Shown: piece by piece, positions 5,425 through 35,741 of the stretch
How positions within the stretch are numbered: the stretch's first letter is position 1
Layout: every line of letters starts with the position of its first letter
Source: a virus
Length of the DNA stretch: 64,000 nucleotides
Virus record (IMG/VR): IMGVR_UViG_3300005805_009577
Location: 117,146 to 181,145 of that record
Reading direction: 5' to 3' (one strand)
Notes under the pieces: generated by a model
Told to the model about the DNA's origin: nothing
Database searches by the model: none
Seen by the model: the letters and a program-made list of their open reading frames with translations, nothing else
Made by a program: the position numbers and the translations under genes

Positions 5425-5656
5425 AAATAAAAAACGCTGAAATTCATATTTATAAAAACCTTTAATTATTAGTATCCATGCTTCCACTTCCGAATAAAAT
5501 TACATTTTTTGAGCAAGAACTAACCAAAAAAACAAAAGAAGAGTTAGAAAAAATGATCAAAGAAATAGAAGAGTATAAGCCCATTAATTGGCTCAGTGCT
5601 ATCGCTAAAACGTCTCAATTAGAAATACTCAAAAAACTACATATAGAAAAATAAAA

Positions 5657-14531: not shown

Positions 14532-14640
14532 AACATTATTTAATTATTAACCTTAAAAGGTGTTTTTGGGGTACGTCTTAGCGTTGTAAGCCGACACTGG
14601 TTCGGTAAAAGACTGGAATGATAAATTTAGAGGTGATAAT

Positions 14641-14871
14641 ATGGCTAAGGTTGACGCTGCTTCGTTTGTGGATGCGTGGGTTAAGATTTATGAGCAGGGT
14701 GGCTCGCAGAGTGATGTTGCTCGTGAAATTGGCACTTCGGCTGCTAACGTGTCGAATCGTGCTAAGAAGTTGCGTGATGCGGGAGTTGATCTTCCCGAAC
14801 TGACGATTACGCGTGGTGTTAAGCTTGACGTTGAGTCGCTTAACGCTCGGCTGAAGGCTCGGATTGGTTGA
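14641..14871 (+). CDS. HTH DNA-binding protein, paralog 1
   Basis: GGSQSDVAREIGTSAANVSNRAKKLRDAGVDLP helix-turn-helix pattern; GAGGTG RBS. Confidence 0.85.
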   Translation: MAKVDAASFVDAWVKIYEQGGSQSDVAREIGTSAANVSNRAKKLRDAGVDLPELTITRGVKLDVESLNARLKARIG

Positions 14872-14890
14872 AATTAATCAAAGGGAATAA

Positions 14891-14929
14891 TTAGTCCCCG
14901 GGTTTTCCGCAAGGAGAACCTGGGGCTAA
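14891..14929 (+). terminator. GCAA-loop hairpin after HTH paralog 1
   Basis: Long stem whose mismatches are G-U pairs on the + transcript plus one bulge; only a short T-run follows. Confidence 0.6.
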
Positions 14930-15021
14930 CCCTTTATTTATTGCTAAAATATAAAGACCTTCTCTGGGTACGGCAGTCTGTTGTCAGGGACGGTAATAAC
15001 AAACATATAAGAGAACCTACT

Positions 15022-15123
15022 ATGGCTATTATGTTTAGTTGGATGCTTTTGATTGCTATTATGGCTACCGTGTTCGGTGCGGTTGATTTTGCCTTTAGCG
15101 TAATCGACCGATACTTATCCTAA
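15022..15123 (+). CDS. 33-aa hydrophobic micro-peptide
   Basis: MAIMFSWMLLIAIMATVFGAVDFAFSVIDRYLS after motif 14965; one TM-length hydrophobic stretch. Confidence 0.55.
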   Translation: MAIMFSWMLLIAIMATVFGAVDFAFSVIDRYLS

Positions 15124-15281
15124 TCTTTATCAGTTTCTTTTACTGATAATAGTTTTTGGAGTTTTTCGTATAGTTGGCCTACAGCACTCATGTCGCTTGC
15201 TTTAAAACATCCGCGTTGTGAAGCAGCGTCAATAATAGCAATAATGTTTCCAATGTCCTGATCGTTTAGTTGATTTTCCAT
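15120..15281 (-). CDS. small hypothetical protein (53 aa)
   Basis: MENQLNDQDIGNIIAIIDAASQRGCFKASDMSAVGQLYEKLQKLL...; convergent with the micro-peptide. Confidence 0.55.
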   Translation of the reverse strand: MENQLNDQDIGNIIAIIDAASQRGCFKASDMSAVGQLYEKLQKLLSVKETDKD

Positions 15282-15303
15282 AAAATAATATAGTTAAAAA
15301 TTT

Positions 15304-15374
15304 CCTAGGTGGAAACCGGTAGGCAAGTCACTCTTATAAGGTGACGACGCAAGGTTCGACTCCTTGACCTAGGA
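15304..15374 (+). tRNA. tRNA-Ile(TAT)-like, atypical D-arm
   Basis: Acceptor CCTAGGT/ACCTAGG, anticodon arm TCACT-CTTATAA-GGTGA, T-arm CAAGG-TTCGACT-CCTTG; D-arm pairs poorly. Confidence 0.55.
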
Positions 15375-15387
15375 CTTAATATTTAGC

Positions 15388-15585
15388 ATGGATACAGCCG
15401 CATATAAACAACTCTACGATCTTTATGTTGTTGCTAAGTCTGAAACAAATAATTTAGACTATATCAACGAACTGATTGACCAAATTTTATTTTTTGGAAC
15501 TGAGACAAACAAGTTGACCAAAACCCATGTTCAAGAACGACTTAAAGATGTGCTTGAATCTATTGAACGATCGCTGCTAAAATAG
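15388..15585 (+). CDS. hypothetical protein
   Basis: 65-aa ORF between two tRNAs. Confidence 0.55.
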   Translation: MDTAAYKQLYDLYVVAKSETNNLDYINELIDQILFFGTETNKLTKTHVQERLKDVLESIERSLLK

Positions 15586-15593
15586 TTTAATAT

Positions 15594-15666
15594 GGGAGTA
15601 TAGTCCAACGGCAGAGACAAAGGACTTAAAATCCTTCAAGTTCAGGTTCGAATCCTGATACTCCTA
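15594..15666 (+). tRNA. tRNA-Leu(TAA), short variable loop
   Basis: Anticodon arm AAGGA-CTTAAAA-TCCTT, GGTTCGAATCC, acceptor GGGAGTA/TACTCCT. Confidence 0.88.
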
Positions 15667-15889
15667 CTTATGCTAGTTCATTTAGAAAACGGTAAAACTT
15701 ATAAAATAGTAGAATCTTGGATTAAAGAAAAGAAAATCTACTATCCTGCCGACATATTAGGTATGAATCTGCCCGAACCAAAACCCAGGTTCAAATTAAC
15801 GCCTAAAGGAATTAAAATAAAAGAATAAGACTCTTGAATCATAAATTTTTTTCTGATATAATATTTTCAATTATAGGAGAAAAAAGTTT

Positions 15890-16120
15890 ATGATGATTAC
15901 GTTTAATCCTGGTAAAAATGAATTATTTACCATGGAGTTTAATCGAAGAGAAGATTGGAATCAATATGTAGAAAGTTTTAATAAAGTTGGTGAGTTGCAG
16001 CCTCTCAACCATCCAGATCGTTTTCCTTGTGTTATGATTTACGATAATAATATTCTTCCGATAGATGCAGAACATAATAAGTACTATAACTTTTTCTTGT
16101 ATTATTATGCGAATGCTTAA
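15890..16120 (+). CDS. hypothetical protein
   Basis: 76 aa, AGGAG RBS. Confidence 0.6.
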   Translation: MMITFNPGKNELFTMEFNRREDWNQYVESFNKVGELQPLNHPDRFPCVMIYDNNILPIDAEHNKYYNFFLYYYANA

Positions 16121-16159
16121 GTTGAGTCCGAACGACAGGTTGGTAATACTTTTAATATT

Positions 16160-16474
16160 GTGGAATATTTACTTCTTAATAGCATTAAAATGAACAGCAT
16201 TGATGAACTTGTATCAAAGGTTCGTGAAGAAATCACCAACCGAGATATTAAAATCTCTCAGCTTAATAATACCATTGAAAATATGTATAAGGCTTTGGCC
16301 AAGATTAAAATAGATCTTGATCGAAGTCTACGAGGTAAAAAGGATGTATTAAACAATGCAATAGCAGCAGTTGAACTTGCTAGAAGCGTTACACCTTATC
16401 ATAATTATTCAACAGGTCAAAATACTATTGACCAACCATATTCAGAAGAAGAAAAGAGTAAGATTTTAGAATAA
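16160..16474 (+). CDS. coiled-coil hypothetical protein
   Basis: 104-aa ORF; true start may be ATG 16190. Confidence 0.55.
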   Translation: MEYLLLNSIKMNSIDELVSKVREEITNRDIKISQLNNTIENMYKALAKIKIDLDRSLRGKKDVLNNAIAAVELARSVTPYHNYSTGQNTIDQPYSEEEKSKILE

Positions 16475-16550
16475 TAAAATTAGCAGCCCCTTTTCGGGGT
16501 ACGGTCTGATAACGGCCCGATAACAACCATCCCTTTCCGCGAGGATACTT

Positions 16551-16751
16551 ATGTTTAATTTTGAAGGTAAGGATTACGAGTTGATCGACGGCAACATTGT
16601 TGACAGCCGTACTTATCTTTTGGTTTGCAACGAAGTTGCTACCAAGATTTGTGAAACTTTCGGCGTTACGATGAAGCAAGAGCAAACTTCGCGGGAAAAC
16701 ATCGACGTTGCTTTTCTGAACAGTCGGATTAAGAACAAGATTGGTGCTTAA
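16551..16751 (+). CDS. hypothetical protein of the GGGGTACG regulon
   Basis: 66 aa, GAGGA RBS, motif at 16496. Confidence 0.7.
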   Translation: MFNFEGKDYELIDGNIVDSRTYLLVCNEVATKICETFGVTMKQEQTSRENIDVAFLNSRIKNKIGA

Positions 16752-16753
16752 TC

Positions 16754-17827
16754 ATGGATAACAAGTTCACACTATCATCTGAAAAACTTGAATCACGACG
16801 GCTGTGTAGTGTAACTAGAGACTTGCTTTATGTTCGGGTGCGGTTTAGCGATCAGGCTAACGCACCTGAAACTATAGAGACAAGCAACTTTATTGTGAAC
16901 AAAACGGCAACTGCTATTCGAGATTTTAGTGGAGGACAAGTTAATCTTTCCACTACTATACGAGATGTAACATTGCCGTATAGGGCAAGTTATTATGGCA
17001 CTAATACTTACACAATTTCTAATCACGCTCAAAATATACTTCGTCAATCTGGACTGAACCTGAATAATTACGAACATAGTAATTTCAGGTACAACAGTCG
17101 TGCAGGATTTTTTGTAGGTTTAGGAGAAGTAGGCGGTAAGATTACTTGGACTAAAGACTCTGATCCGGGTACGCTTATTCATGAAATTGGACATAATTTA
17201 GGATTGCGTCATAGCAGTTTTGTTAATCCAAATAATAATGCTCATCCTTTTGGGCCAGGACGAACTTTTGAATATGGCGATGTATTTTCCAATATGGGTA
17301 ATGCTCGTTATACCGATTGGAACGCAACTCAAAAGTGGGCTTTAGGTTACATTTCAAACAACAGTGTTAGAGCTGTAAATGCTAATAGTTTTAATATCGT
17401 TGTTAGCTCTCATGACAATGCAGCGTTTTACAATAAAAGCGAAGTATATCTAGTTAATATTCCTATTGGTGGTAACAATTCAATATATGCAAGTTACAGG
17501 CGTGATGCCGGCGGTGTTGTGATTCATGTTGGCAATAGTTTTAGGCCAACCGGCGATACTTTAATTGACGGCAATCCGCAAACTGAATTGAGTACAGACG
17601 CTGCTCTTAAACTTGGACAGTCAATTACCAATTTTAGAAGGCCGGGAGTTAGCGACGATATTAGAATTACTGTAACGAGCATTGTGGGCAATCGTGCAAC
17701 CATTAATGTGAACTTCGGTGCAGTCGTACCTAAAATAGCTCATAATGCAAACTTGATTGCTGCATTTGCAAGCATGGCAAACGAACCTGTAGAAAGATGC
17801 AAAATCAGATACCCTGTTAGGTTGTAG
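16754..17827 (+). CDS. zinc metalloprotease, gametolysin/M11-like, with planctomycete-type N-terminal motif
   Basis: HEIGHNLGLRH (HExxHxxGxxH), downstream EYGD...MG; N-terminal EKLESRRL. Confidence 0.8.
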   Translation: MDNKFTLSSEKLESRRLCSVTRDLLYVRVRFSDQANAPETIETSNFIVNKTATAIRDFSGGQVNLSTTIRDVTLPYRASYYGTNTYTISNHAQNILRQSGLNLNNYEHSNFRYNSRAGFFVGLGEVGGKITWTKDSDPGTLIHEIGHNLGLRHSSFVNPNNNAHPFGPGRTFEYGDVFSNMGNARYTDWNATQKWALGYISNNSVRAVNANSFNIVVSSHDNAAFYNKSEVYLVNIPIGGNNSIYASYRRDAGGVVIHVGNSFRPTGDTLIDGNPQTELSTDAALKLGQSITNFRRPGVSDDIRITVTSIVGNRATINVNFGAVVPKIAHNANLIAAFASMANEPVERCKIRYPVRL

Positions 17828-17917
17828 GTTTAAAACTTAAATAAAATTTCAAGAAAACTTAAAGCCCCTTTTCGGGGTACGCTCTTGAAATGTCGGAGAG
17901 TTTACAGGGAGATAACA

Positions 17918-18433
17918 ATGCAACGTAGAAACTTTATCAAAGGCTTACTTGCAAGTACAGTTGCAGGAACTTTTCCAGCAACGGCAGATGCAAGTGATAA
18001 CGTTCAACTTAATCAAAGAATTGTAAATATTGCCCGTGGTGCGATTGGCAAGCCCGGTGGCAATCGTTACAATAGTTGGCTTTTTGGTTATAATGTTATG
18101 ATGGCTGCTGGTGGTCGTGGGCCTTATCATGGCCCGCAAAACCAATATGCTTGGGGTAGACCAATAGGTTGGAATGAACTTGGCCCGGGCGATTATATTC
18201 AAATTGAATCGCCAACTGTTTTTAAAACCCCTCCGCCTAATTGTCGTGCATATTGGGGTTGTAGTGGACGTTGCACTTGGATTGTTTTAAACAGACAAAA
18301 TGGTCGAGCACCTGGAAGCGTACTTAACATAGCGTATATGTATCGTGTGAACAGGGTGCAGGCTGCTAGGATTGACGTTTGGGATAGAACTTGTGGAAAC
18401 CAAATATATCTTTACAGACCACAATTACGGTAA
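17918..18433 (+). CDS. Tat-signal secreted hypothetical protein
   Basis: MQRRNFIKGLLASTVAG...ADA twin-arginine signal; GGAGA RBS; motif at 17874. Confidence 0.7.
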   Translation: MQRRNFIKGLLASTVAGTFPATADASDNVQLNQRIVNIARGAIGKPGGNRYNSWLFGYNVMMAAGGRGPYHGPQNQYAWGRPIGWNELGPGDYIQIESPTVFKTPPPNCRAYWGCSGRCTWIVLNRQNGRAPGSVLNIAYMYRVNRVQAARIDVWDRTCGNQIYLYRPQLR

Positions 18434-18473
18434 TTTTTAAATAATTTTAATAAATAGTTCAAGGAGGATATTA

Positions 18474-18704
18474 ATGAGCGACCGTGATAGTGACAACCAA
18501 GAAAAAGAAAAGAAAAAAGTAAAGTTTAACAGCCGCTTTGCTCGTGCTGTTTTGTTCTATGTTGAGAATGAATATGAAATCGTAATTGAAGAAAAGAGCA
18601 TTGAAATACAAAGAGCAGCGTTAAAGCTGCTTAAAGAACTAAAGGCAGGCGGAAATAACGTTCCTAACACGGCACATGTGATTGCTTATAATATTCCCTT
18701 GTAA
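18474..18704 (+). CDS. hypothetical protein
   Basis: 76 aa, AGGAGG RBS. Confidence 0.65.
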   Translation: MSDRDSDNQEKEKKKVKFNSRFARAVLFYVENEYEIVIEEKSIEIQRAALKLLKELKAGGNNVPNTAHVIAYNIPL

Positions 18705-18914
18705 TTACCAATGATGAATTATATTGGCTATTACAAATCCGCAAGTTATAAAATTAACTAGAACTATTATGAATCTGATACCTAGACTTATCAAAGCCAT
18801 TTCTACGCTTAAAATAGGAATATCAGGTGTATCACTATCATTAGTTCCTATTCTATAATCTATTGTTCTGGCTAATAATAATACAAATTTACTAGATACT
18901 AATTTTCTTAACAT
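18705..18914 (-). CDS. small membrane hypothetical protein
   Basis: 69 aa, GGAGGA RBS upstream on - strand, hydrophobic C-terminus. Confidence 0.55.
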   Translation of the reverse strand: MLRKLVSSKFVLLLARTIDYRIGTNDSDTPDIPILSVEMALISLGIRFIIVLVNFITCGFVIANIIHHW

Positions 18915-19033
18915 AAATCCTCCTTGAATATTAGCTTCCTAATAGTATTTATAAAAAAGAAATAATAAAATTCAATCATCCTTTTCGGGGTACGGCTCTA
19001 GGATACTAGCCGGTAAAACCTGAGAGAAAAAAA

Positions 19034-19282
19034 ATGAACACTATTTATCCAAAAGGTGCATGGAACGTACGGATTAAGGCAAACATTGAAACTTTTCTTG
19101 ATGCCTATTTGACGGTACTTAACAACGGTGGTAATTACGGCGATGTTGCTCGAATTATCGGCTGTGAAATCATTGATGTTCAATTTGCAGAAGTGCGAAT
19201 CCGTGCAAGCGGAGTTAAACTTCCTAGGCTGAATTTTACTGAGGAAAATGATGATCGAGTTGTTATGCTGATGCAGTCATAA
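19034..19282 (+). CDS. HTH paralog, divergent (A)
   Basis: TFLDAY...NGGNYGDVARIIGC...SGVKLPRL aligns with the family; motif at 18987. Confidence 0.7.
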   Translation: MNTIYPKGAWNVRIKANIETFLDAYLTVLNNGGNYGDVARIIGCEIIDVQFAEVRIRASGVKLPRLNFTEENDDRVVMLMQS

Positions 19283-19320
19283 AAATAAATAAAAGACTAT
19301 CACATTATATACCGATTATC

Positions 19321-19356
19321 AAATACACCCGGTCTTTCGACCGGGTGTATTTTTTT
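19321..19356 (+). terminator. rho-independent terminator
   Basis: Perfect 14-bp stem, TTTC loop, T-run after; stem ends 24 nt before motif 19376. Confidence 0.8.
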
Positions 19357-19362
19357 GTTTAT

Positions 19363-19707
19363 TTAAAAGTTTTTTGGGGTACGGTGTATTGACCAATTTT
19401 TATTAAACAAAAAAAGAAAAATTAATCCAGTGATTAAAAACAAGGTCGAATTAGGTTCAGGTACTGGCGTGGGTACCGGTTCTGGTTCTGGTGTTCTTAA
19501 TATCATTGCTAAAAAATACATGCTTTGATCGCTGGCTACAACAGAAGTATCAGCAGTATAATTAAAACTTTCGCCAAGAAGTTCTAAAAAATGATCTACG
19601 TTATACTCAGAATATAAATCAAAAGGATCGCTATACCAATGATAGCCGTTAATATATGATCCTGATGCGTAGCCTATATTAAGCAAATCTATTTCGGCAG
19701 TTTCCAT
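19363..19707 (-). CDS. PEP-CTERM-like protein
   Basis: C-terminal PEPEPVPTPVPEPNSTLFLITGLIFLFLFNK = VPEP + TM helix + basic tail; ATG 19707 with GGAG upstream, start uncertain. Confidence 0.6.
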   Translation of the reverse strand: METAEIDLLNIGYASGSYINGYHWYSDPFDLYSEYNVDHFLELLGESFNYTADTSVVASDQSMYFLAMILRTPEPEPVPTPVPEPNSTLFLITGLIFLFLFNKNWSIHRTPKNF

Positions 19708-19831
19708 AGCCCACTCCAATAATATTATACAAAAAAATAAATTAATTAAAAGATAGAAATAAAGCCTCCTTTTTGGGGTACGTTTTGGGGTTGTGGTTCG
19801 ATTGGTTCTAATAAACAGGAGACTGGTTAAA

Positions 19832-20059
19832 ATGCGAGTTGATGCTGCTACTTTCGTCGATGCTTGGGTCAGTGCTTTCGAAGCCGGTGGCAATCAGAGT
19901 GACGTTGCCCGTACGCTTGGTTGTAGTGCTGCTAACGTGTCGAATCGTGCTAAGAAGTTGCGTGATGCGGGAGTTGATCTTCCCGAACTTACCGTGACTC
20001 GTGGTGTTAAGCTTGACATTGAGTCGCTTAACGCTCGGCTTAAGGCTCGGATTGGTTGA
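19832..20059 (+). CDS. HTH DNA-binding protein, paralog 2
   Basis: MRVDAATFVDAW...SAANVSNRAKKLRDAGVDLPEL; AGGAG RBS; motif at 19775. Confidence 0.85.
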   Translation: MRVDAATFVDAWVSAFEAGGNQSDVARTLGCSAANVSNRAKKLRDAGVDLPELTVTRGVKLDIESLNARLKARIG

Positions 20060-20077
20060 AATTAATATAGGGAATAA

Positions 20078-20117
20078 TTAACCCCTGGGTTTTCCGCAAG
20101 GAGAACCTGGGGGTTAA
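20078..20117 (+). terminator. GCAA-loop hairpin after HTH paralog 2
   Basis: 18-bp stem with three G-U pairs; near copy of 14891 hairpin. Confidence 0.6.
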
Positions 20118-20149
20118 CCCTTAATATTAAAAATACTTTTTGGGGTACG

Positions 20150-20219
20150 GAGGCCGTGTGCGGCCGGTTAAGGGGATCGTCAAGGGTGACCCGTGCGGCC
20201 GATATACCCCTTGACTTTT
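20150..20219 (+). ncRNA. candidate small RNA directly after motif 20142
   Basis: No ORF; GTCAAGGG/CCCTTGAC stem followed by TTTT; internal direct repeat GTGCGGCCG. Confidence 0.35.
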
Positions 20220-20284
20220 AATATAACTTAATTAATCAAAAATAATATGATTTAATAAAATAATCAAAACTCAAGGATGGAGCA

Positions 20285-20647
20285 ATGATTAGTTTACCAA
20301 AGTTTGCAAGGAGGGGAATTTTGTTATATTTACAAATTGCGGCGGCTGTTGTTAGTCTTTTGCTTGGGCTTGCCCAAATGACAAAAGAATCACAACCATT
20401 AATTCAAAAGATGCAACAAAACCATCAACAGGCCGTTGCACAAAAACAAACAGAAAAAGCATGTCGCAAAGCATGTGAAATTGCAAACATGCAGATAGCA
20501 TGGCAGTTTAGGGGGTACGATAGCAATTGGAGATATTATAGCGATCCTAGTGGAAGGTTTTGGGCTAGAGTTAATATTCAAGGCATATATGAGTATTGTG
20601 AAAGCCCGAATTATCAAATTGCAAATAACCCTATAACAATTCGTTAA
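20285..20647 (+). CDS. membrane-anchored or secreted hypothetical protein
   Basis: N-terminal RRGILLYLQIAAAVVSLLLGLA hydrophobic segment; GGAG RBS. Confidence 0.65.
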   Translation: MISLPKFARRGILLYLQIAAAVVSLLLGLAQMTKESQPLIQKMQQNHQQAVAQKQTEKACRKACEIANMQIAWQFRGYDSNWRYYSDPSGRFWARVNIQGIYEYCESPNYQIANNPITIR

Positions 20648-20648
20648 A

Positions 20649-20837
20649 ATGAAAACTAAAAGCGAATATACAGTTCAATTTGATGAACATACGTTAAATC
20701 CCGAAGGACATTATTATATCCTTAAGGACGGCGAAACTTTAATGCTTCCAAAAAGCGATGGAAGCAAGTTACTTCCTACCTTTCCAACTAGAGCGGAAGC
20801 AGAAGAGTATATTCAATTAGTCAAAATACTAAGTTAA
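20649..20837 (+). CDS. hypothetical protein
   Basis: 62 aa, 1-nt gap from previous stop. Confidence 0.6.
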   Translation: MKTKSEYTVQFDEHTLNPEGHYYILKDGETLMLPKSDGSKLLPTFPTRAEAEEYIQLVKILS

Positions 20838-20838
20838 A

Positions 20839-21090
20839 ATGACCATTGCTGAAATTATATACCAACTGAGCAAGTTTGACCCGAACACTAGGGTTGTTGT
20901 TGATGGTTACGAGGGAGGTTTCGATGATCCTAGAATCGTTGAAGAAACTGCCATCATTGACGCTAACTGGACTGTTGTTGATAAAGGGCGTGGAACCGAA
21001 GGCAAACGGCATAATTGGAATGGCCGTCATGATTACGGTACTTGTTACACTGAATGTCATAATACTAAAGTAATTCTTATAGGAAGATAA
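20839..21090 (+). CDS. hypothetical phage protein
   Basis: MTIAEIIYQLSKFDPNTRVVVDGYEGG, a pattern frequent in small phage ORFs. Confidence 0.65.
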   Translation: MTIAEIIYQLSKFDPNTRVVVDGYEGGFDDPRIVEETAIIDANWTVVDKGRGTEGKRHNWNGRHDYGTCYTECHNTKVILIGR

Positions 21091-21198
21091 ATCAAGAATC
21101 ATGCTGGTTTAAATAAAGAATCCTTTTCGGGGTACGGTATTGAGTTGCGGCTGGTTAAGAGACTCTTGACTCCCGCTAATTTTTAATTATAATAAGAA

Positions 21199-21279
21199 GA
21201 TATTCAGTTATGACCACGTAACGGAGGGTACGTTAGAAGTTAAGGACTATGGGCCTTACACGAACTCCTACTGAATATC
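21199..21279 (+). ncRNA. candidate structured RNA downstream of motif 21129
   Basis: Perfect 10-bp closing stem GATATTCAGT/ACTGAATATC, inner GGAG/CTCC and TAAGG/CCTTA stems; no ORF. Confidence 0.4.
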
Positions 21280-21313
21280 CTGCAATACAAAGTTAATAAA
21301 ACGCCACCGCCAA

Positions 21314-21352
21314 CACTCCGAAAGCACTAACCAACAGTTGCGATTAGGGGTG
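21314..21352 (+). repeat. structured repeat, copy 1 (CACYCC-GAAA-GCA...TGC-GAYTA-GGGGTG)
   Basis: Second copy at 21710-21747; outer ACGCC/GGCGT stem 21301-21360. Confidence 0.6.
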
Positions 21353-21462
21353 ACAGGCGTAAAAAAATAATAAATTAAATTAACCAGTATCATTAAAAAG
21401 TCTTTTGGGAGTACGTCCTAAGGTTGTGGTGGTTACGACCCGCGAAACCGGAGCATAAAACA

Positions 21463-21687
21463 ATGCAACTTACATTCGAAGAAAAGACCCTGAAGTATCT
21501 TGATGGCGTGAACATCAACATTGACCTTGGAACTTTCATTGACGAATATATGAAGGCTTACAAGGCCGGTCAGACTAAGGCTGAACTTGGCGAGACGCTT
21601 GGCATCAATCATATTGAAGTTGCGATTATTGTTGACAAGATGGCTAGTTTCGGTGTGAAACTTCCCCAACTTCGGATTCAGATTTAG
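21463..21687 (+). CDS. HTH paralog, divergent (B)
   Basis: GTFIDEYMKAYKAGQTKAELGETLG...FGVKLPQL aligns with the family; GGAG RBS; motif variant at 21408. Confidence 0.65.
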   Translation: MQLTFEEKTLKYLDGVNINIDLGTFIDEYMKAYKAGQTKAELGETLGINHIEVAIIVDKMASFGVKLPQLRIQI

Positions 21688-21709
21688 TTTAACAAAACCC
21701 CAACGCCAA

Positions 21710-21747
21710 CACCCCGAAAGCACTAAGTTACAGTGCGACTAGGGGTG
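21710..21747 (+). repeat. structured repeat, copy 2
   Basis: CACCCC-GAAA-GCACT-loop-AGTGC-GACTA-GGGGTG. Confidence 0.6.
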
Positions 21748-21779
21748 GAAAACACTTGTGAAAGGGTTTGTGAAGCAAA

Positions 21780-21989
21780 ATGAATCAAACCTATAGCATT
21801 CGTATCATTTTCGATGGAAGCAAATATGATACTACGCTTATCTCAGGGTTTACTTATAAGCAAGCATTCGAATATGCTCGTAAGTGTGTAACAAAAGAGA
21901 TTAATTATCTCTTGTTCTCTGGTCGGAATGTGAACATATACGTTGAAAATGATTTGGGAAAAAGGCTTGCAACTTACTACGTATATTAA
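21780..21989 (+). CDS. hypothetical protein flanked by TTGTGAA pairs
   Basis: 69-aa ORF. Confidence 0.6.
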   Translation: MNQTYSIRIIFDGSKYDTTLISGFTYKQAFEYARKCVTKEINYLLFSGRNVNIYVENDLGKRLATYYVY

Positions 21990-22021
21990 ACTTTTTGTGA
22001 AAACATTTGTGAAGAGTCAGT

Positions 22022-22118
22022 AAAAACACTAAAAAAAGCCTAAAAAACACTAAAAAAAGCCTAAAAAAGCTTAAAAAAAGCCAAAAATAAGCTAAAAAAC
22101 AAGCCAAAAAATGAAAAA
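22022..22118. repeat. phased A-tract array
   Basis: A5-7 tracts start at 22022,22031,22042,22052,22063,22073,22083,22094,22106,22114. Confidence 0.8.
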
Positions 22119-22292
22119 TATACTCAATATACTTGCTATTTTAAGTACATTAACACTCAATGGAAGTGAATTTGGATGTACTCTTTGGGCAAATTTAACA
22201 TTGTTTAGGTTCTAATTGAAAGTTAACCGCACCTTTTAGCGGTACGGTAACTGGGTGTGACGGTTGGAACTAACCCCTAGGAGAAGGTTAAC

Positions 22293-22520
22293 ATGCGAGT
22301 TGATGCCAACACTTTCATCGACACTTGGTGCGACGTTTACGACAACGGTGGAAATCAAAGTGACGTTGCAAGGCGTTTAGGTTGCAGTGCGGCTAACGTA
22401 AGTAATCGTGCAAAGAAACTGCGTGATGCCGGAGTTGATTTGCCTGAATTGACAGTTACTCGTGGTGTGAAACTTGATATTGAAAGTCTAAACGCAAGGC
22501 TGCGTGAACGAATCGGTTAA
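22293..22520 (+). CDS. HTH DNA-binding protein, paralog 3
   Basis: MRVDANTFIDTW...identical HTH core; AGGAG RBS; motif variant at 22239. Confidence 0.85.
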   Translation: MRVDANTFIDTWCDVYDNGGNQSDVARRLGCSAANVSNRAKKLRDAGVDLPELTVTRGVKLDIESLNARLRERIG

Positions 22521-22535
22521 ATAAATATACCGAAA

Positions 22536-22565
22536 GTTATACCCGGAGTAAAATCCGGGTATAAC
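22536..22565 (+). terminator. GTTATACCC-type hairpin
   Basis: Perfect 12-bp stem GTTATACCCGGA/TCCGGGTATAAC; identical to 23407. Confidence 0.65.
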
Positions 22566-22697
22566 CGTTTATATTAAAAATCCTTTTAGAGGTACGGCAG
22601 GATAGAACAAGTTTGTGAACTTACTTGTGAAGGTTAAAACAAACTTGTGAAACCTTTTCGGAGTACGGCTACGGGTTAACCCCGGAGAAATATACCA

Positions 22698-22886
22698 ATG
22701 AGCCAGCGAGTTAAAGAGCAAATGAAACGTGATGCTGAAATTCACGCTAACGGCCGGTTTACTCCACGAGATAGAGAAGATGTTAATCGTATTGTGGAGA
22801 TACTTGTGAACCGGCAATTTGCCGTTAGGGTATCATCAGAAGTTGAAACCCAAGTAAACGAAACGATCAAAGAAATAATTAATTGA
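22698..22886 (+). CDS. hypothetical protein of the regulon
   Basis: 62 aa, GGAGA RBS, motif variant at 22660. Confidence 0.7.
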   Translation: MSQRVKEQMKRDAEIHANGRFTPRDREDVNRIVEILVNRQFAVRVSSEVETQVNETIKEIIN

Positions 22887-22893
22887 GAGAAAA

Positions 22894-22923
22894 GATTATA
22901 CCTAGGTTAAACTGGGTATAATC
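22894..22923 (+). terminator. GTTATACCC-type hairpin
   Basis: GATTATACCTAG/CTGGGTATAATC, one G-U pair. Confidence 0.65.
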
Positions 22924-22953
22924 GTTATAATTACAAATTGTTTTTGGGGTACG

Positions 22954-23085
22954 GCAAAAGGTTGCTAAGCCGCCTATGAATAGCACTCGTTAGGTAGTTC
23001 GGATGGGCGACAACTAACGATAAAAGCGGATAGTTATATTACTTGTTTCTCCGTGAGTAATATAATGAAATATAACGGAGACTAT
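22954..23085 (+). ncRNA. candidate small RNA with hairpin and H-type pseudoknot
   Basis: TCGTTAG/CTAACGA stem; 10-bp stem 23034-43/23056-65 whose loop TCTCCGT pairs with ACGGAGA 23075-81; no ORF between motifs 22946 and 23111. Confidence 0.45.
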
Positions 23086-23158
23086 ATTTTAAAAATTAAA
23101 AGTTAATTTTGGGGTACGGTAACTGGGTGTGATCGGTTAACCCTTGGAGATAACAATC

Positions 23159-23389
23159 ATGGCACGAGTTGACGCTGGCAATTTCATCGAAGTGTGGTGC
23201 GACGTTTACGACAACGGTGGAAATCAAAGTGACGTTGCCCGTAAACTGGGTTGCAGTGCGGCTAACGTAAGTAATCGTGCAAAGAAACTGCGTGATGCCG
23301 GAGTTGATTTGCCTGAATTGACAGTTACTCGTGGCGTTAAACTTGACATTGAAAGTTTGAATGCCCGGCTGCGTGAACGAATCGGTTGA
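23159..23389 (+). CDS. HTH DNA-binding protein, paralog 4
   Basis: MARVDAGNFIEVW...; GGAGA RBS; motif at 23111. Confidence 0.85.
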   Translation: MARVDAGNFIEVWCDVYDNGGNQSDVARKLGCSAANVSNRAKKLRDAGVDLPELTVTRGVKLDIESLNARLRERIG

Positions 23390-23406
23390 AAAAAGTGTGA
23401 ACGCGA

Positions 23407-23436
23407 GTTATACCCGGAGTAAAATCCGGGTATAAC
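23407..23436 (+). terminator. GTTATACCC-type hairpin
   Basis: Perfect 12-bp stem. Confidence 0.65.
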
Positions 23437-23570
23437 CGTTTATATTAAAAAACCTTTTAGGGGTACGGCTATAGGTTGACAATTTGATTGGTAATAAAGT
23501 ATAATTAAAAAAAAGATTACTATTGGCTTTTAGGGGTACGGTAGGTTGACGTCTCACAGGAGAAAACGAA

Positions 23571-23639
23571 ATGTATAGGTATTACGTTGATTGCCTTGGT
23601 CGAGTTTACGATATACAGACGGGATTAAGAATCAAGTAA
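23571..23639 (+). CDS. 22-aa micro-peptide
   Basis: MYRYYVDCLGRVYDIQTGLRIK; AGGAG RBS; motif at 23533. Confidence 0.55.
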   Translation: MYRYYVDCLGRVYDIQTGLRIK

Positions 23640-23722
23640 AGTAGGCAAAACTTTTTTGCCGACGACAGTTGTCTTTTTGGGGTACGTTGAGACGGTGGGT
23701 TCAGTCGTCCAGGAGAAACATC

Positions 23723-23797
23723 GTGCGAAATGCAGATAAGGCGATTTTGGCGGTTTCATTCATCATGGGCATTATCGTCGCTATTATAATCGCCTAA
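23723..23797 (+). CDS. 24-aa hydrophobic micro-peptide (GTG start)
   Basis: MRNADKAILAVSFIMGIIVAIIIA; AGGAG RBS; motif at 23679; hairpin follows. Confidence 0.6.
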   Translation: MRNADKAILAVSFIMGIIVAIIIA

Positions 23798-23802
23798 AAG
23801 AA

Positions 23803-23833
23803 GTTATACCCTAGGATAAGCCTAGGGTATAAC
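23803..23833 (+). terminator. GTTATACCC-type hairpin
   Basis: Perfect 13-bp stem. Confidence 0.65.
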
Positions 23834-23913
23834 CGTTGATACTACGAAACCTTTTTTGGGTACGTTATCGGGGTGTCGCCGGTTGAGAGCGACAAACTAA
23901 CGGAGAAAAAGAA

Positions 23914-24144
23914 ATGGCACGGGTTGACGCTGGTAGTTTCGTCGATGCTTGGATGGATGCTTATGACAAGGGTGGCAATCAGAGCGACGTTGCTCGTACG
24001 CTTGGTTGCTCTGCCGCGAACGTTTCGAACCGTGCTAAGAAACTTCGGGAAGCCGGGGTTGACCTGCCTGAACTTCAGGTTGTGCGGGGCGTCAAGTTGG
24101 ATATTGAAAGCCTGAACGCTCGTCTTAAGGCGAGGATCGGCTGA
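23914..24144 (+). CDS. HTH DNA-binding protein, paralog 5
   Basis: MARVDAGSFVDAW...; GGAGA RBS; motif variant at 23857. Confidence 0.85.
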   Translation: MARVDAGSFVDAWMDAYDKGGNQSDVARTLGCSAANVSNRAKKLREAGVDLPELQVVRGVKLDIESLNARLKARIG

Positions 24145-24152
24145 TAACAAAA

Positions 24153-24182
24153 GTTATACCCGGGGTAAAACCCGGGTATAAC
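24153..24182 (+). terminator. GTTATACCC-type hairpin
   Basis: Perfect 12-bp stem. Confidence 0.65.
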
Positions 24183-24223
24183 CCTTTACACACATATACC
24201 TTTTTGGGGTACGGCAAGAGGGC

Positions 24224-24307
24224 ATGGATACTATCATCGCTATTACGTTTGCTTTCGTCGGTGCCGGGTTTATAGGCAAGTATCTTTGGAACGAAATGGA
24301 ATATTAA
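24224..24307 (+). CDS. 27-aa hydrophobic micro-peptide
   Basis: MDTIIAITFAFVGAGFIGKYLWNEMEY; GAGGG RBS; ATG 11 nt after motif 24206. Confidence 0.6.
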   Translation: MDTIIAITFAFVGAGFIGKYLWNEMEY

Positions 24308-24377
24308 ACGAACGGCTACAGCCGCCAAGGCGATGCCGGTCTTTTCGGGGTACGGCGGACATGAGGAGGGCAAAGCG

Positions 24378-24500
24378 ATGCCTCTAGTAAGTGCAATCGT
24401 CTTCTTATTAATCCGTAGCGTATCTGCTAGGCTATATCGGATTAGCCAGGTTCGTTCTGAACCGGTTTATCCAGTTCTTATCGGAGCAAAAGGAAGGTAG
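24378..24500 (+). CDS. 40-aa micro-peptide
   Basis: MPLVSAIVFLLIRSVSARLY...; GAGGAGG RBS; motif at 24347. Confidence 0.5.
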   Translation: MPLVSAIVFLLIRSVSARLYRISQVRSEPVYPVLIGAKGR

Positions 24501-24504
24501 ACCC

Positions 24505-24612
24505 ATGACTATAGATGAAGCAATGGCATTTAGTTTCGTTCGTTATGGCATTATGTCTTACGAAGAATTCCTAGTATGGCTAGCAAAACAGCAGATAGTA
24601 AAGGCTAGCTAG
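24505..24612 (+). CDS. 35-aa micro-peptide
   Basis: MTIDEAMAFSFVRYGIMSYEEFLVWLAKQQIVKAS; GGAAGG RBS; hairpin follows the stop. Confidence 0.55.
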   Translation: MTIDEAMAFSFVRYGIMSYEEFLVWLAKQQIVKAS

Positions 24613-24615
24613 GTA

Positions 24616-24648
24616 GATTACACCCTAGAGAAAATCTAGGGTGTAATC
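24616..24648 (+). terminator. GTTATACCC-type hairpin variant
   Basis: Perfect 14-bp stem GATTACACCCTAGA/TCTAGGGTGTAATC; substitutions are compensatory relative to other copies. Confidence 0.65.
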
Positions 24649-24709
24649 CTAACAATCCCCTGAGCTTTTTGGGGTACGTTACAGGGTTGTCTCAAGGAGG
24701 ATGACAACA

Positions 24710-24874
24710 ATGGAAACAGCAGTTAGCATCGCGGTTATGATGGGAGTTGGATTTGCGGCTGCCCTTGCACAAGTTATTTCGGACATGATGGAAGAAAAGG
24801 CCATTGTCCGAAACAACGAAGACAAGGCTAGGATCATCATGGAAGAATACGAAGAATATACGGAGGGGGTATAA
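24710..24874 (+). CDS. 54-aa single-TM peptide with acidic tail
   Basis: METAVSIAVMMGVGFAAALAQVIS...EEYEEYTEGV; AAGGAGG RBS; motif at 24671. Confidence 0.65.
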   Translation: METAVSIAVMMGVGFAAALAQVISDMMEEKAIVRNNEDKARIIMEEYEEYTEGV

Positions 24875-24952
24875 CATACCCTTATCTGACCTAGAACCTT
24901 TTTGGGGTACGTTACAACATCGTGGTCGATAACACTAACTGGAGAAAAAGAA

Positions 24953-25183
24953 ATGGCACGAGTTGACGCTGCTAACTTCGTCGATGCTTGGATGAACGCG
25001 TATGAGAACGGTGGCAATCAGAGTGACGTTGCCCGTGACCTTGGTTGTAGTGCTGCGAACGTCAGCAACCGGGCTAAGAAACTTCGGGATGCCGGGGTTG
25101 ACCTGCCTGAACTGACCGTCACGCGGGGCGTCAAGTTGGATATTGAAAGCCTGAACGCTCGACTGAAGGCTAGGATCGGTTGA
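24953..25183 (+). CDS. HTH DNA-binding protein, paralog 6
   Basis: MARVDAANFVDAW...; GGAGA RBS; motif at 24904. Confidence 0.85.
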   Translation: MARVDAANFVDAWMNAYENGGNQSDVARDLGCSAANVSNRAKKLRDAGVDLPELTVTRGVKLDIESLNARLKARIG

Positions 25184-25189
25184 ACCTAA

Positions 25190-25219
25190 GTTATACCCTA
25201 GGGAAACCTAGGGTATAAC
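25190..25219 (+). terminator. GTTATACCC-type hairpin, GAAA loop
   Basis: Perfect 13-bp stem. Confidence 0.65.
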
Positions 25220-25291
25220 CCTTTACATGCATATACCTTTTCGGGGTACGGCAAGGGTATGTGGATCGGTTAACCCTAGGAGAAAAGAATC

Positions 25292-25534
25292 ATGCGGACA
25301 CGAAAGAGTCGTATCAGCGTTCAGCGTTTCGTTTCGACTTGGTGCCGGGTGTATCGTCAGGGTGGCAATCAGGATATGGTTGCAAAGGCTCTGCATTGCA
25401 CCGGTGCTAACGTCAGTATTCGTGCCAAGGCTTTGCGTAAGAGTGGCGTGAAGTTGCCACCGCTGAATCCCGGTCGGGTTTATGACACGGCTGTTGTGAG
25501 AATGAACAAAGACATTGCGGAAATGATTGGATAG
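25292..25534 (+). CDS. HTH paralog, divergent (C)
   Basis: RFVSTW...GGNQDMVAKALHCTGANVSIRAKALRKSGVKLPPL; AGGAG RBS; motif at 25243. Confidence 0.75.
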   Translation: MRTRKSRISVQRFVSTWCRVYRQGGNQDMVAKALHCTGANVSIRAKALRKSGVKLPPLNPGRVYDTAVVRMNKDIAEMIG

Positions 25535-25579: not shown

Positions 25580-25864
25580 TAACTCATAACATTAAGGAAA
25601 AATAAAAAGCAAAATTAAAAAATAAATAAAATAATTTTACAAAGTTAAATAAAAAAATCAAAACTAAGAAAAAACCTGGAGCTATTAGGGGTACAGGGAC
25701 CCCGGAACTGCCATTACAGCCTTTCTTTTTATTAAACCCTATCTTTTTTCGTCCACACCCTATATTGGCTTGTAATGAATTTCTATTGCGTTTATTACAA
25801 AATTAATCTAAATGGTCGCCTGCACAAGTCCCTACAACCTAAAAAAATTAGAAAATCGTTTTTA

Positions 25865-26102
25865 AAAAAATCGCGGCGGCCTATTTTTTAATTATACTAA
25901 AAGGTTAATTTGTCATAAGTCTATATTTATCAAATACTTACGGCGAGCAGGAAAAACTATCTTGTCGTAAGTCTATATTTCACAGCACTTTACGTAAAAT
26001 TAATCAAAAAGTTCAATAAAAACCGCTACACAACCGTCCAGAAACTGAAAAAAACATAAAATCAAATTTCAAAAAATCGCGGCGGAGGATTTTTTAATTA
26101 TA
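25865..26102. repeat. intergenic repeats at the island boundary
   Basis: AAAAAATCGCGGCGG..TTTTTTAATTATA at 25865 and 26071; TGTCRTAAGTCTATATTT at 25911 and 25963, each followed by ACTT(T)ACG. Confidence 0.6.
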
Positions 26103-26116: not shown

Positions 26117-26578
26117 CTAAATAAATTTTTCAGCTCGTTCATTAAAACAAATTCCGTTTAAATGGTCGAATTCGTGTTGAAAAACCCTAGCCAGATAACC
26201 ATTTAATTTACTGTTTGTCCACTCACCTTTTATATCTTGATAAGATACTTCTATAGAATCATATCTTTTAATTTTTAACATTAAATTTGGAAAGCTTAAA
26301 CAACCTTCATAGTCCGTATTCTTTTTTACGCTAACCTTTGTAATTATTGGATTAAAAAATGCTTGAGGTTTAATAAATCCCGGTATTTCATTTGACCCTA
26401 TTATAAATACTTGAGAATTTAATCCTATTTGATTTGCAGCAATACCAATTCCATTATGTTTTAACATAATTTCTATCATTAATCTTTCAGTTTCCACAGG
26501 ATCAATTTTTCCATTAAATTCAAAAGGATCTACTGATTTGTGCAGCATATCAAAAGGTTCGTATTTTAATTCATACAT
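26117..26578 (-). CDS. def: peptide deformylase
   Basis: GIGIAANQIG, EGCLS, HEFDHLNG signature motifs. Confidence 0.95.
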   Translation of the reverse strand: MYELKYEPFDMLHKSVDPFEFNGKIDPVETERLMIEIMLKHNGIGIAANQIGLNSQVFIIGSNEIPGFIKPQAFFNPIITKVSVKKNTDYEGCLSFPNLMLKIKRYDSIEVSYQDIKGEWTNSKLNGYLARVFQHEFDHLNGICFNERAEKFI

Positions 26579-35607: not shown

Positions 35608-35741
35608 ATAATAAACGAGTAAGTATATTTTAATTTAAATTATACTTTTCTTTCTATCGGCTGCGGCGACTACTTTTCAAAAATAGACTTTTTAAAAAGC
35701 TGCGGTACTTGGTTTATTTAATACACTTCATATATATCTAT

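Follow-up and report, generated by a model that had tools for sequence, protein, structure and literature searches.

Cluster A mycobacteriophages carry stoperators, many asymmetric intergenic sites that lie in one orientation with respect to transcription; a small helix-turn-helix (HTH) protein recognizes them. Phage T4 makes MotB, a small and abundant DNA-binding protein, and gene families of the histone type follow birth-and-death evolution under purifying selection. Sso10a (PDB 1r7j) is a small, abundant archaeal chromatin protein in which a winged helix is joined to a dimer-forming C-terminal helix. The IncP/IncW global repressors KorA and ArdK (PDB 7bca and 7bbq) consist of about 80-100 amino acids with an N-terminal HTH and a C-terminal helical part, and ArdK recognizes operators that recur in many of the promoters of its replicon. 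T4-type phages contain promoter-early stem-loop (PeSL) cassettes, in which a composite of a stem-loop terminator and a promoter element of the TTGACA-N17-TATAAT type lies between small, mostly ORFan genes of a hyperplastic region (Arbiol et al. 2010, PMC2839356; Comeau et al. 2014, PMC4122927). Here, we report a previously undescribed family of tiny HTH genes from a large uncultured freshwater phage.

The window, a 64-kb stretch of the 181-kb phage record, carries six core HTH genes on its + strand, to which all features given below belong: copy 1 (14641..14871, 76 amino acids [aa]), copy 2 (19832..20059, 75 aa), copy 3 (22293..22520, 75 aa), copy 4 (23159..23389, 76 aa), copy 5 (23914..24144, 76 aa), and copy 6 (24953..25183, 76 aa). 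They are accompanied by three divergent relatives, d1 (19034..19282, 82 aa, HMM E 8e-25), d2 (21463..21687, 74 aa), and d3 (25292..25534, 80 aa, HMM E 2.5e-30). All nine ORFs were found where an earlier note on this DNA had placed them, and helix 3, the recognition helix, was indeed altered in the three divergent members. The core proteins are 75-92% identical (75-84% to copy 1 and 84-92% to copy 6) and their genes 64-89% identical; since pairwise E-values range from 1e-39 to 1e-47, the resemblance is not due to chance. DNA identity was higher inside the pairs 1+2 (0.81), 3+4 (0.89), and 5+6 (0.85) than across them (0.64-0.78), so the proposed grouping into three pairs is real. The family is larger than the nine members first counted, since an HMM scan of the whole record returned 14 at E<=7e-6 and one more at E=0.009; the window accounts for 9 of these. 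With 11 members upon BLASTP clustering of the record, compared to at most 3 for any other family, it is by far the largest paralog family of this phage.

Each of the nine units in the window consists of a 17-nt motif (motif P), a Shine-Dalgarno site, an intact gene, and a strong hairpin, in agreement with the claim that every copy has its own regulatory signals. Motif P is contiguous (CCTTTTNGGGGTACGG), with a weak GTTG 7 nt beyond it, and is located 45-71 nt 5' of the start codons. It precedes copy 1 (14561..14577, 71 nt 5' of the ATG), d1 (18980..18996), copy 2 (19768..19784), d2 (21401..21417, an AGTACG variant), copy 3 (22232..22248), copy 4 (23104..23120), copy 5 (23850..23866), copy 6 (24897..24913), and d3 (25236..25252). 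The motif is strand specific, as GGGTACG occurs 36 times on the + strand and never on the - strand of the whole record, with a concentration in the HTH island. It did not match a two-hexamer promoter of the sigma-70 type, and it is a candidate promoter, operator, or 5' leader element. The hairpins, with folding z values from -4.3 to -6.5 across the tested units, are distributed by pair as previously described. Copies 1 and 2 have one long type in common (14880..14935, -33.8 kcal/mol, z -6.45; 20062..20130), and copies 3 to 6 are followed by a GTTATACCC type, identical after copy 3 (22536..22565, 12-bp stem, z -4.27) and copy 4 (23407..23436) and in variant form after copy 5 (24153..24182, z -4.56) and copy 6 (25190..25219, 13-bp stem). 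The d1 hairpin has a 14-bp stem and a T-run (19321..19352).

This arrangement resembles PeSL cassettes in its composite of stem-loop terminator and promoter-like element between small, mostly ORFan genes of a hyperplastic region, in the insertion or deletion of whole cassettes that separates related phages, and in repeated elements that supply homology for recombination. It differs in that the promoter part is a contiguous motif and that many cassettes hold one gene family. Moreover, a T4-type affiliation of the phage is only suggested, by rIIA/rIIB, RNA ligase, and similar genes; gp23 was not found in this fragment. Like stoperators, motif P is intergenic, present in many copies, and in a single orientation relative to transcription, and PDB 7tz1, from the stoperator/immunity-repressor system, appeared in the structural comparison at Z 4.0. 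Stoperators, however, belong to temperate phages with just one repressor gene, whereas motif P lies, as a promoter would, at a set distance (45-71 nt) from start codons.

The earlier note had taken the proteins for HTH proteins, which a structure model of copy 6 and its superposition on known structures bore out. The model (pLDDT 86) has helices at residues 6-18, 23-30, 34-46, and 64-75, that is, a predicted three-helix HTH followed by a C-terminal helix, with no beta wing predicted. Residues 3-55 superposed at 2-3 Å on the HTH heads of DtxR/MntR, Lrp/AsnC, LysR, LsrR, and BirA. Copy 6 also served as search query. The HTH family matched no curated family above threshold and all matches to known HTH families fell below their cutoffs, the best Pfam match being HTH_24 (E 1.7e-4, 21.5 bits against a cutoff of 21.9). 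As in the HTH_24/AsnC-Lrp heads (PF13412, PF13404), helix 3 is followed by a glycine and a hydrophobic residue, but the family has a single C-terminal helix instead of the ligand-binding RAM domain. KorA/ArdK, similar in size and layout, was the top match both in profile-versus-PDB comparison (E 0.035) and in Foldseek (E 0.19), below significance in each case; across entire chains the rmsd was about 15 Å, the window proteins were not hit by the Pfam KORA model, and these repressors, unlike the HTH family, are encoded by single-copy genes. The predicted fold suggests that the family proteins bind DNA.

As had been proposed, the recognition helix is constant, with eight positions (A35, N36, V37, S38, R40, A41, K42, and R45) unchanged across 47 relatives. 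G48, L51, P52, L54, D63, L67, N68, and L71 are also invariant, R70 and R74 nearly so, and the G-V-x-L-P-x-L segment after the recognition helix is invariant or nearly so. Purifying selection was evident from dN/dS values of 0.05-0.31 among copies (0.19 outside the variable patch), and the claimed synonymous divergence between pairs was confirmed by a pS of 0.6-0.8, at which dS is saturated, and by the occurrence of serine codons from both families at the two conserved serines. The most variable positions among the 47 relatives were 7, 8, 14-16, 18, 19, and 29, so helix 1 does vary as claimed. The further proposal that this helix adaptively tracks a host partner or evades a sensor found no support in its stated form, as pN/pS in the patch, which was chosen post hoc, was 0.56, that is, not above 1; the variation may be mere relaxed constraint.

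Selection is not the only source of uniformity, since part of that within pairs stems from gene conversion, which is ongoing between copies. Copy 1 is a recombinant mosaic of two other copies: nt 31-90 match, at 100%, another copy that lies outside the window (genome position 97938), and the 3' part, compared with copy 2 in 30-nt windows, shows about 83-100% identity, reaching 97-100% at nt 106-150 and 181-225. Copies 3 and 4 share 66 identical nt spanning helix 3.

Arrays of 4-10 copies were present in independent freshwater metagenome contigs, including 10 copies within 16.8 kb of L001, 6 within 5.4 kb of L019, and 4 within 8.5 kb of L021, and in each of these three GGTACG was confined to the + strand. 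No family relatives were found in cultured phages or in IMG/VR or GTDB genomes. In L001, a split copy lies on both sides of 3.4 kb, and L021 differs from the window by a 4-kb indel between the copy 1 and d1 cassettes. Orthologous groups of the c1, c2, c3/4, c5/6, d1, d2, and d3 types span the contigs, with a d1 orthologue in L001 and L021 and with d3 grouping with three L001 genes and near-identical to the P0083 sequence. Since independent contigs carry arrays with orthologues of the paralog lineages, the array is neither an assembly artifact nor transient. Furthermore, the existence of orthologues for every paralog lineage and divergent subfamily argues for long-term sub-functionalization beyond mere extra protein.

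We consider it somewhat better than even (probability roughly 55%) that these genes constitute a phage-restricted, uncharacterized family of small DNA-binding regulators, amplified as cassettes and kept both for high expression and for sub-functionalized surfaces. In the protein plan, a short linker with the conserved G-V-x-L-P-x-L would join an HTH_24/AsnC-like three-helix HTH to an amphipathic C-terminal helix that is also conserved. In this lineage of large freshwater phages, the family most likely grew to at least 14 genes through recombination, unequal or ectopic, between self-contained units, each with a terminator hairpin, a promoter-like motif specific to one strand, a Shine-Dalgarno site, and a small gene, that are analogous to the cassettes of T4-type phages. 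The core paralogs would all read one DNA sequence through the invariant recognition helix, probably as head pairs, because natural fusions (P0137, P0144, P0162, P0175, P0145, and P0213) hold two family modules in one chain. Through the exposed helix 1 patch, the lineages may differ from one another in partner surface or in regulatory nuance, and the divergent subfamilies may read other DNA sites. The putative role is transcriptional control of the phage cassette regulon, of host DNA during takeover, or of both; a near-identical DNA-reading part under selection suggests a takeover regulator supplied at high dose and in several flavors.

The earlier note had argued that dosage matters, and named a titrating inhibitor, DNA coating, and transcription appropriation as roles, which we retain as alternatives. 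The codon usage of the HTH copies is host-like and unlike that of the rest of the phage: ATA (0 versus 0.50 in long ORFs) and AGA (0 versus 0.69) are absent, TTA (0.02 versus 0.45) is nearly so, and AAA is reduced (0.27 versus 0.79), the first three making up 45-69% of their codon families in long ORFs. As this usage is retained despite saturated synonymous divergence, it fits selection for expression, although the odd codon and amino acid composition could partly reflect foreign origin. The proteins are presumably abundant and probably early, before the phage tRNA-Ile(TAT) and tRNA-Leu(TAA) matter. Such codons, nearly identical proteins with saturated synonymous sites, and a promoter-like motif and terminator for every copy would also suit a pure dosage array, in which the core copies are functionally equivalent and an architectural winged-HTH protein, quickly made in bulk from many genes, covers or condenses the DNA of host or phage like Sso10a or T4 MotB. 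The family would then evolve by birth and death, as histone genes do. As in histone families, many genes, here predicted to be separately transcribed, encode near-identical products with diverged synonymous sites, and a neighboring Atlas cluster of viral proteins has AT-hooks. Sso10a was among the top Foldseek rows, but the match is weak (E 0.26) and without sequence relation. Unlike histone families, this viral family has paralog-specific surface patches conserved between phages and evident gene conversion tracts. Simple dosage requires neither the persistence of lineages with their own helix 1 signatures as orthologues nor the retention of at least four divergent subfamilies with different recognition helices, and the invariant, specific-looking recognition helix favors sequence-specific over generic binding. 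The dosage claim is therefore supported in part, but dosage as the whole explanation appears rather unlikely, and we favor a sub-functionalized regulator family.

It is less probable still that the proteins are free-standing HTHs resembling sigma region 4, which bind RNA polymerase via the beta-flap or via a sigma factor, perhaps the one encoded by the phage, and redirect it to motif P, with DNA contact secondary or absent. The phage does encode a sigma-70-family protein, the nonstandard motif P makes an accessory factor plausible, and the conserved C-terminal helix could serve docking. However, matches to Sigma70_r4, the ECF sigma C terminus, and sigma-F region 4 (E 0.02-0.13) were no better than those to a dozen other HTH families, all below threshold, and any protein partner is hypothetical. 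In addition, a distant single-copy relative, in L015, sits in a phage with a different repeated motif.

We also doubt strongly that the HTH is a selfish or mobility-linked element that aids the recombination or spread of its own cassette, for instance by targeting cassette mini-circles or setting their directionality, with copy number reflecting drive and not benefit to the phage. This would agree with the family being the only strongly amplified one, with the recombination scars and mosaics, with weak likeness to transposase-type HTHs (HTH_28, E 0.0015; IS630 N terminus, E 0.003; PF13518 precomputed on four relatives), and with the known PeSL mini-circles (PMC2839356). Yet no nuclease, recombinase, or transposase domain was found within or beside the cassettes, the flanking signals also serve many unrelated genes, and expression-type codons and long-term paralog orthology are more in line with a host-beneficial gene. 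It is scarcely credible that the copies are neutral remnants of a recent tandem duplication, which repeated flanks would ease, or a repeat assembly artifact. This is contradicted by dN/dS far under 1 with saturated dS, by the intact frame, Shine-Dalgarno site, and hairpin of every copy, by near-identical DNA of which 8 runs from 2 studies contain more than half of the sampled words (and 2 further studies a lower share), and by the independent arrays.

TTGTGAA direct repeats accompany d2. A pair with 12-nt spacing (21756..21774) lies immediately 5' of a 69-aa gene at 21780, and the d2 orthologues in L001, L019, and L021 are each followed by such repeats and a gene of ~65 aa. The d2 type plausibly regulates the adjacent gene with these repeats. 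Three further TTGTGAA repeats (22613..22651) are flanked by two tandem P motifs (22583 and 22654).

The nine helix-turn-helix (HTH) genes described in the earlier note are all present on the + strand, at the starts it gave. Six core copies encoding 75-76 aa lie at window positions 14641, 19832, 22293, 23159, 23914 and 24953 (copies 1 to 6), and three divergent members at 19034, 21463 and 25292 (d1, d2 and d3), within the stretch at 14-26 kb of the window, hereafter called the island. The core proteins are 75-92% identical, and their DNA falls into the proposed pairs (1+2, 81% identical; 3+4, 89%; 5+6, 85%; 64-78% between pairs). Hairpin types track this grouping, with one long type 3' of copies 1 and 2 and a GTTATACCC-type stem of 12-13 bp 3' of copies 3-6. 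The recognition helices of d1, d2 and d3 are indeed altered, as their helix-3 residues differ. A family size of nine proved too low: a family HMM run against a six-frame translation of the whole record returned 14 members with E≤7e-6, plus a further one at E=0.009; the members beyond the window are at 7.1, 46.8, 93.0, 97.9 and 111.3 kb of the genome. This is the sole large paralog family in the record, with 11 linked members in an all-against-all BLASTP compared with at most 3 in any other. The observation is real and stronger than first stated, and its interpretation proved partly right.

The HTH fold was recovered in an AlphaFold model (pLDDT 86) that shows a three-helix core (residues 6-18, 23-30 and 34-46) and a C-terminal helix (64-75). 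After helix 3, where a beta-hairpin wing would be expected, residues 47-63 are modelled as coil with a pLDDT of about 75, and the G-V-x-L motif looks like a wing's beginning. PDB matches were generic HTH heads only, with superposition at 2-3 Å over residues 3-55 on those of DtxR/MntR, Lrp/AsnC, LysR, LsrR and BirA (Z≤5.5). The top Pfam match was HTH_24 (PF13412), at 21.5 bits for copy 1, 0.4 bits short of the 21.9 gathering cut-off, and at 19.8 and 17.2 bits for copies 3 and 5, also below it; the HTH copies have the three-helix core of this AsnC-type HTH but do not reach its gathering score. KorA/TrfB/ArdK (PF16509) gave no significant match (profile against PDB ArdK, E 0.035-0.043; Foldseek, E 0.19), Pfam KORA was absent from the matches listed for window proteins, and PHROGs and NCBIfam yielded nothing significant for the family. 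In the Atlas, its neighbours are hypothetical proteins of viruses, to which Pfam assigns no family. The HTH proteins stand outside every curated family and form a new phage-only HTH group without a Pfam, PHROG or NCBIfam model.

The earlier note had described six copies as separately promoted, and each of the nine window genes does have its own motif P (a promoter-like element bearing GGTACG), Shine-Dalgarno site (GGAG/GAGG) and hairpin, the promoter and terminator roles being putative. Motif P is 17 nt long, has the form CCTTTTNGGGGTACGG and starts 45-71 nt 5' of the ATG, and a strong hairpin (z -4.3 to -6.5 against shuffles) directly follows the stop codon. Between 22.2 and 25.5 kb the unit order is hairpin, 15-45 nt, motif P, 45-71 nt, ATG. 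No significant RNA structure was found in the 5' leaders (z -1.1 to +1.2), and Rfam matched two tRNAs and nothing else. The information profile of 47 motif P instances, including those of two related contigs, is a single contiguous conserved block with a weak GTTG 7 nt downstream and an A-rich stretch upstream; the same profile contains no -35/-10 hexamer pair. Inspection of the profile also led us to reject sigma-54, sigma-28, ECF, Bacteroidota and T4-late promoters, owing to mismatches in spacing or consensus. Only two cassettes additionally contain consensus sigma-70 promoters. Perfect or near-perfect sigma-70 promoters (TTGACA-18-TATAAT and TTGACG-17-TATAAT) occur at window 23476-23505 and about 2310-2340, and the -35 of both coincides with the GTTG element 3' of motif P. 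Judged by its sequence profile, motif P is a phage-specific promoter-like element. Across the record, the + strand contains 36 copies of the heptamer GGGTACG, mostly inside the island, and the - strand contains none; many asymmetric sites in a single orientation relative to transcription are also typical of a stoperator-type repressor system.

We found no relatives in 50,697 phage records (megablast, tblastn), in GTDB genomes, or in IMG/VR by protein-pattern scans that used copy 6 and the related protein P0099. An exact-motif scan of IMG/VR gave 17 matches, which were unrelated chance matches without family members. A collection of 5.8 billion proteins contained 64 relatives, which are 72-104 aa long and mostly encoded on short contigs from metagenomes; two or three occur together on several contigs. 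The array is not confined to one assembly, nor are homologues always single-copy, as the metagenome contigs L001, L019 and L021 have 10, 6 and 4 members, respectively. Those of L019 lie within 5.4 kb and those of L021 within 8.5 kb; L001 contains 27 GGTACG motifs, on the + strand only, inside a lineage-specific variant motif (TTACTGGGTTGGTACGATA). In a tree, d1, d2 and d3 cluster with their L001 counterparts (SH-aLRT 94, 97 and 83), and the core divides into c1-, c2-, c3/4- and c5/6-type groups. Since each tree group has metagenomic orthologues, the paralogs are old, and each has been retained in its own right. With an exhaustive profile search, the family widened to viral proteins of 70-130 aa, among them P0099 (on a 385-kb contig), and to natural fusions of two family HTH modules; a separate search gave no longer fused forms at E≤1e-5. 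P0065 and other top-scoring proteins of the profile search, with 5-12 matching stretches, were discounted as specific relatives because these generic multi-HTH repeats match dozens of HTH families.

The IMG/VR record is 181,145 bp long and rated 78% complete, the window being its bases 117146-181145. Its G+C content is 29% overall and 36-45% in window 14-26 kb. Among the products encoded beyond the window are rIIA, an rIIB-like protein, an HNH endonuclease, a DNA ligase, an RNA ligase and MoxR-type ATPases. The rIIA, rIIB-like, RNA ligase and DNA ligase genes suggest but do not establish a T4-type affiliation; Gp23 had no match in the 78%-complete fragment, where the control also gave no signal. 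Near-identical DNA occurs in metagenome runs of lakes and other freshwater, which come from four studies and include no RNA run; independent presence of the array was judged from word shares in sequencing runs together with the separate contigs.

We consider that these genes encode a family of sequence-specific regulators, which expanded through recombination between cassettes and is maintained for high expression and sub-functionalised surfaces, a reading to which we assign a probability of roughly 0.55. Among 47 relatives, A35, N36, V37, S38, R40, A41, K42 and R45 of the recognition helix are invariant, as are G48, L51, P52 and L54 and the C-terminal helix face (D63, L67, N68 and L71), while R70 and R74 are almost so. 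Because the recognition helix is invariant, the core copies would share one common nucleic-acid target, and since two-module fusions occur, the HTH heads may act in pairs; the divergent subfamilies would be expected to read other sites. Two elements are candidate targets of the core copies: motif P together with its GTTG, and the palindrome conserved in the hairpins. In three of the four arrays examined (window, L019 and L021), between two and five TTGTGAA direct repeats, and then a gene of ~65 aa, come after a d2-type gene; in L001, the fourth array, repeats are present both upstream of this gene and inside it. These + strand repeats, spaced by 10-19 nt, are at window 21756-21774, 21995-22013 and 22613-22651, at L019 3635-3698, and at L021 7415-7464 and 8146-8233. 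The island contains 12 TTGTGAA on the + strand and none on the - strand, with 1.4 expected, and the counts are 14/0 in L021 and 9/0 in L019. The arrangement of the repeats resembles that of an operator array. A-tracts that recur every 10-11 nt (AAAAAC/GCCTAAAAAA units, window 22022-22109) lie between copy 3 and the 69-aa gene at 21780 and suggest intrinsically bent DNA.

We ranked the regulator family ahead of, in descending order, a dosage or architectural protein, a polymerase appropriator, a selfish cassette factor, and neutral duplicates or an artefact. That the protein serves dosage or architecture alone is possible, if unlikely, and a selfish cassette factor is quite improbable.

In the HTH genes and the long ORFs of the phage, respectively, usage is 0.02 and 0.45 for TTA, 0 and 0.50 for ATA, 0 and 0.69 for AGA, and 0.27 and 0.79 for AAA. 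Because this bias persists despite turnover at synonymous sites, it argues for selection on the expression of the HTH genes, and a dosage role for the copies is plausible. Positions 7, 8, 14-16, 18, 19 and 29, in helix 1 and the HTH head, are the most variable among the 47 relatives. The island also holds tRNA-Ile(TAT) at 15304-15375 (+) and tRNA-Leu(TAA) at 15594-15667 (+); the ATA and TTA codons that they read are nearly absent from the HTH genes and make up 45-50% of Ile/Leu codons in long ORFs. The codon bias fits a translation of the HTH genes that would be independent of both tRNAs.

That the family appropriates the polymerase is improbable. Matches to sigma-70 region 4 (PF04545/PF08281) reached only 12-14 bits (E 0.03-0.14), under the cut-offs of 24.1 and 25.7 bits. 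Outside the window, at genome 23328-24227 (+) (L010:3328-4227, a piece of the record), the phage encodes a protein of the sigma-70 family that has regions 2 and 4. Its best NCBIfam rows are of SigB/RpoD/RpoS type, all far under cut-offs, and the protein is a candidate for reading the GGTACG-type motif. We would also venture, as a long shot, that the paralogs are interchangeable promoter-reading modules, free-standing region-4-like activators whose recognition helix would sit on the GGTACG/GTTG element at the head of every cassette and whose C-terminal helix would dock to RNA polymerase (host core plus phage sigma), with lineage-specific helix-1 patches setting timing or evading interference by the host. 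To our knowledge, such a takeover mechanism is undescribed for any phage; if true, it would be of a kind new to phages.

Recombination has marked the island. Mosaicism is seen in copy 1, whose nt 31-90 match the copy at genome 97938 exactly and whose 3' part is about 83-100% identical to copy 2 in 30-nt windows (97-100% at nt 106-150 and 181-225), with similarity extending into the hairpin-bearing downstream flank. Copies 3 and 4 share 66 identical nt across helix 3 and the motif after it. Such patterns point to concerted evolution among copies, which the first reading overlooked. In L001, one family copy is split into overlapping partial genes (1939-2133 and 5502-5654) around a 3.4-kb block of small genes; its intact form is at 877-1107 of another contig, L003, and the split copy is a recombination scar. 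In L021, the copy-1 cassette adjoins the d1 cassette directly, and the window has 4 kb of extra genes in between. In T4-type phages, promoter-early stem-loop (PeSL) cassettes combine a terminator with a promoter; located in hyperplastic regions, they recombine, give rise to mini-circles and reshuffle ORFans (PMC2839356, PMC4122927). The island carries the signatures known from PeSL cassettes: a stem-loop and then a promoter element between small genes, with putative terminator and promoter activity here, and cassette-bounded indels between related phages, here L021 (4 kb) and L001 (3.4 kb). The island differs in that motif P is non-sigma-70, whereas the early promoter of PeSL is of sigma-70 type, and in that one gene family is used repeatedly.

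Neutral duplication or an artefact is scarcely credible: dN/dS between copies is 0.05-0.31 (Nei-Gojobori), in line with the purifying selection first proposed, dS is 0.37-0.47 within pairs and >1 or saturated between them. Both serine codon families are in use at the two conserved HTH serines. The idea of an adaptive variable helix fared less well, as pN/pS was 0.56 in the patch of most variable positions, chosen post hoc, versus 0.19 elsewhere, which indicates relaxed constraint and leaves positive selection unsupported. Large paralog families of lytic phages are usually selfish nucleases. It is unusual for 14 tiny regulators to form one family under strong purifying selection, each with expression signals of its own and with a codon usage that differs from the remainder of the genome. 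Together, the data describe an HTH family that is new and restricted to phages, in a PeSL-like setting whose promoter-like motif is of a new kind. They broaden the PeSL concept, that of terminator-promoter cassettes prone to recombination, so that it takes in a non-sigma-70 motif and gene amplification, and they offer a compact system (nine genes, three candidate DNA motifs, one phage sigma) for studying phage gene dosage and paralog diversification in takeover.

Other genes of the island were also recorded. Two motif-driven genes encode a 357-aa protein with an HExxH metalloprotease signature and weak Reprolysin_3/M66 matches (16754-17827, +) and a 171-aa protein with a twin-arginine signal peptide (17918-18433, +); both products may be exported. 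The sole plausible minus-strand ORF of the island (19363-19704) had no Pfam match. In its product, a Pro/Glu-rich stretch that ends in P-E-P precedes a C-terminal hydrophobic segment, resembling a PEP-CTERM sorting signal. A 77-nt repeat with an A-rich stretch and a GC clamp is present in two 75% identical copies (25820-25896 and 26026-26102), just before, in window coordinates, a minus-strand peptide deformylase-like gene (26117-26578). Further along the window, a glycosyltransferase cluster (GT25, GT4/GT1 and WbsX; 39991-45928, -) and a LicD/cytidylyltransferase fusion (35709-37127, +) constitute a large cell-surface sugar module in the phage. On other contigs, L021 has at about 4080-4440 a tRNA-like gene whose 5' and 3' halves, recognized by eye, are a few hundred bases apart and which could be an intron-containing tRNA. 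L015, a giant-phage-like metagenome contig of 385.6 kb and 49% G+C, encodes a distant single-copy relative (e.g., 3430-3990) and has its own strand-specific repeat, GGGAGCCAATGGCTCAT (9 on +, 0 on -), along with GGCATGG-type short repeats.
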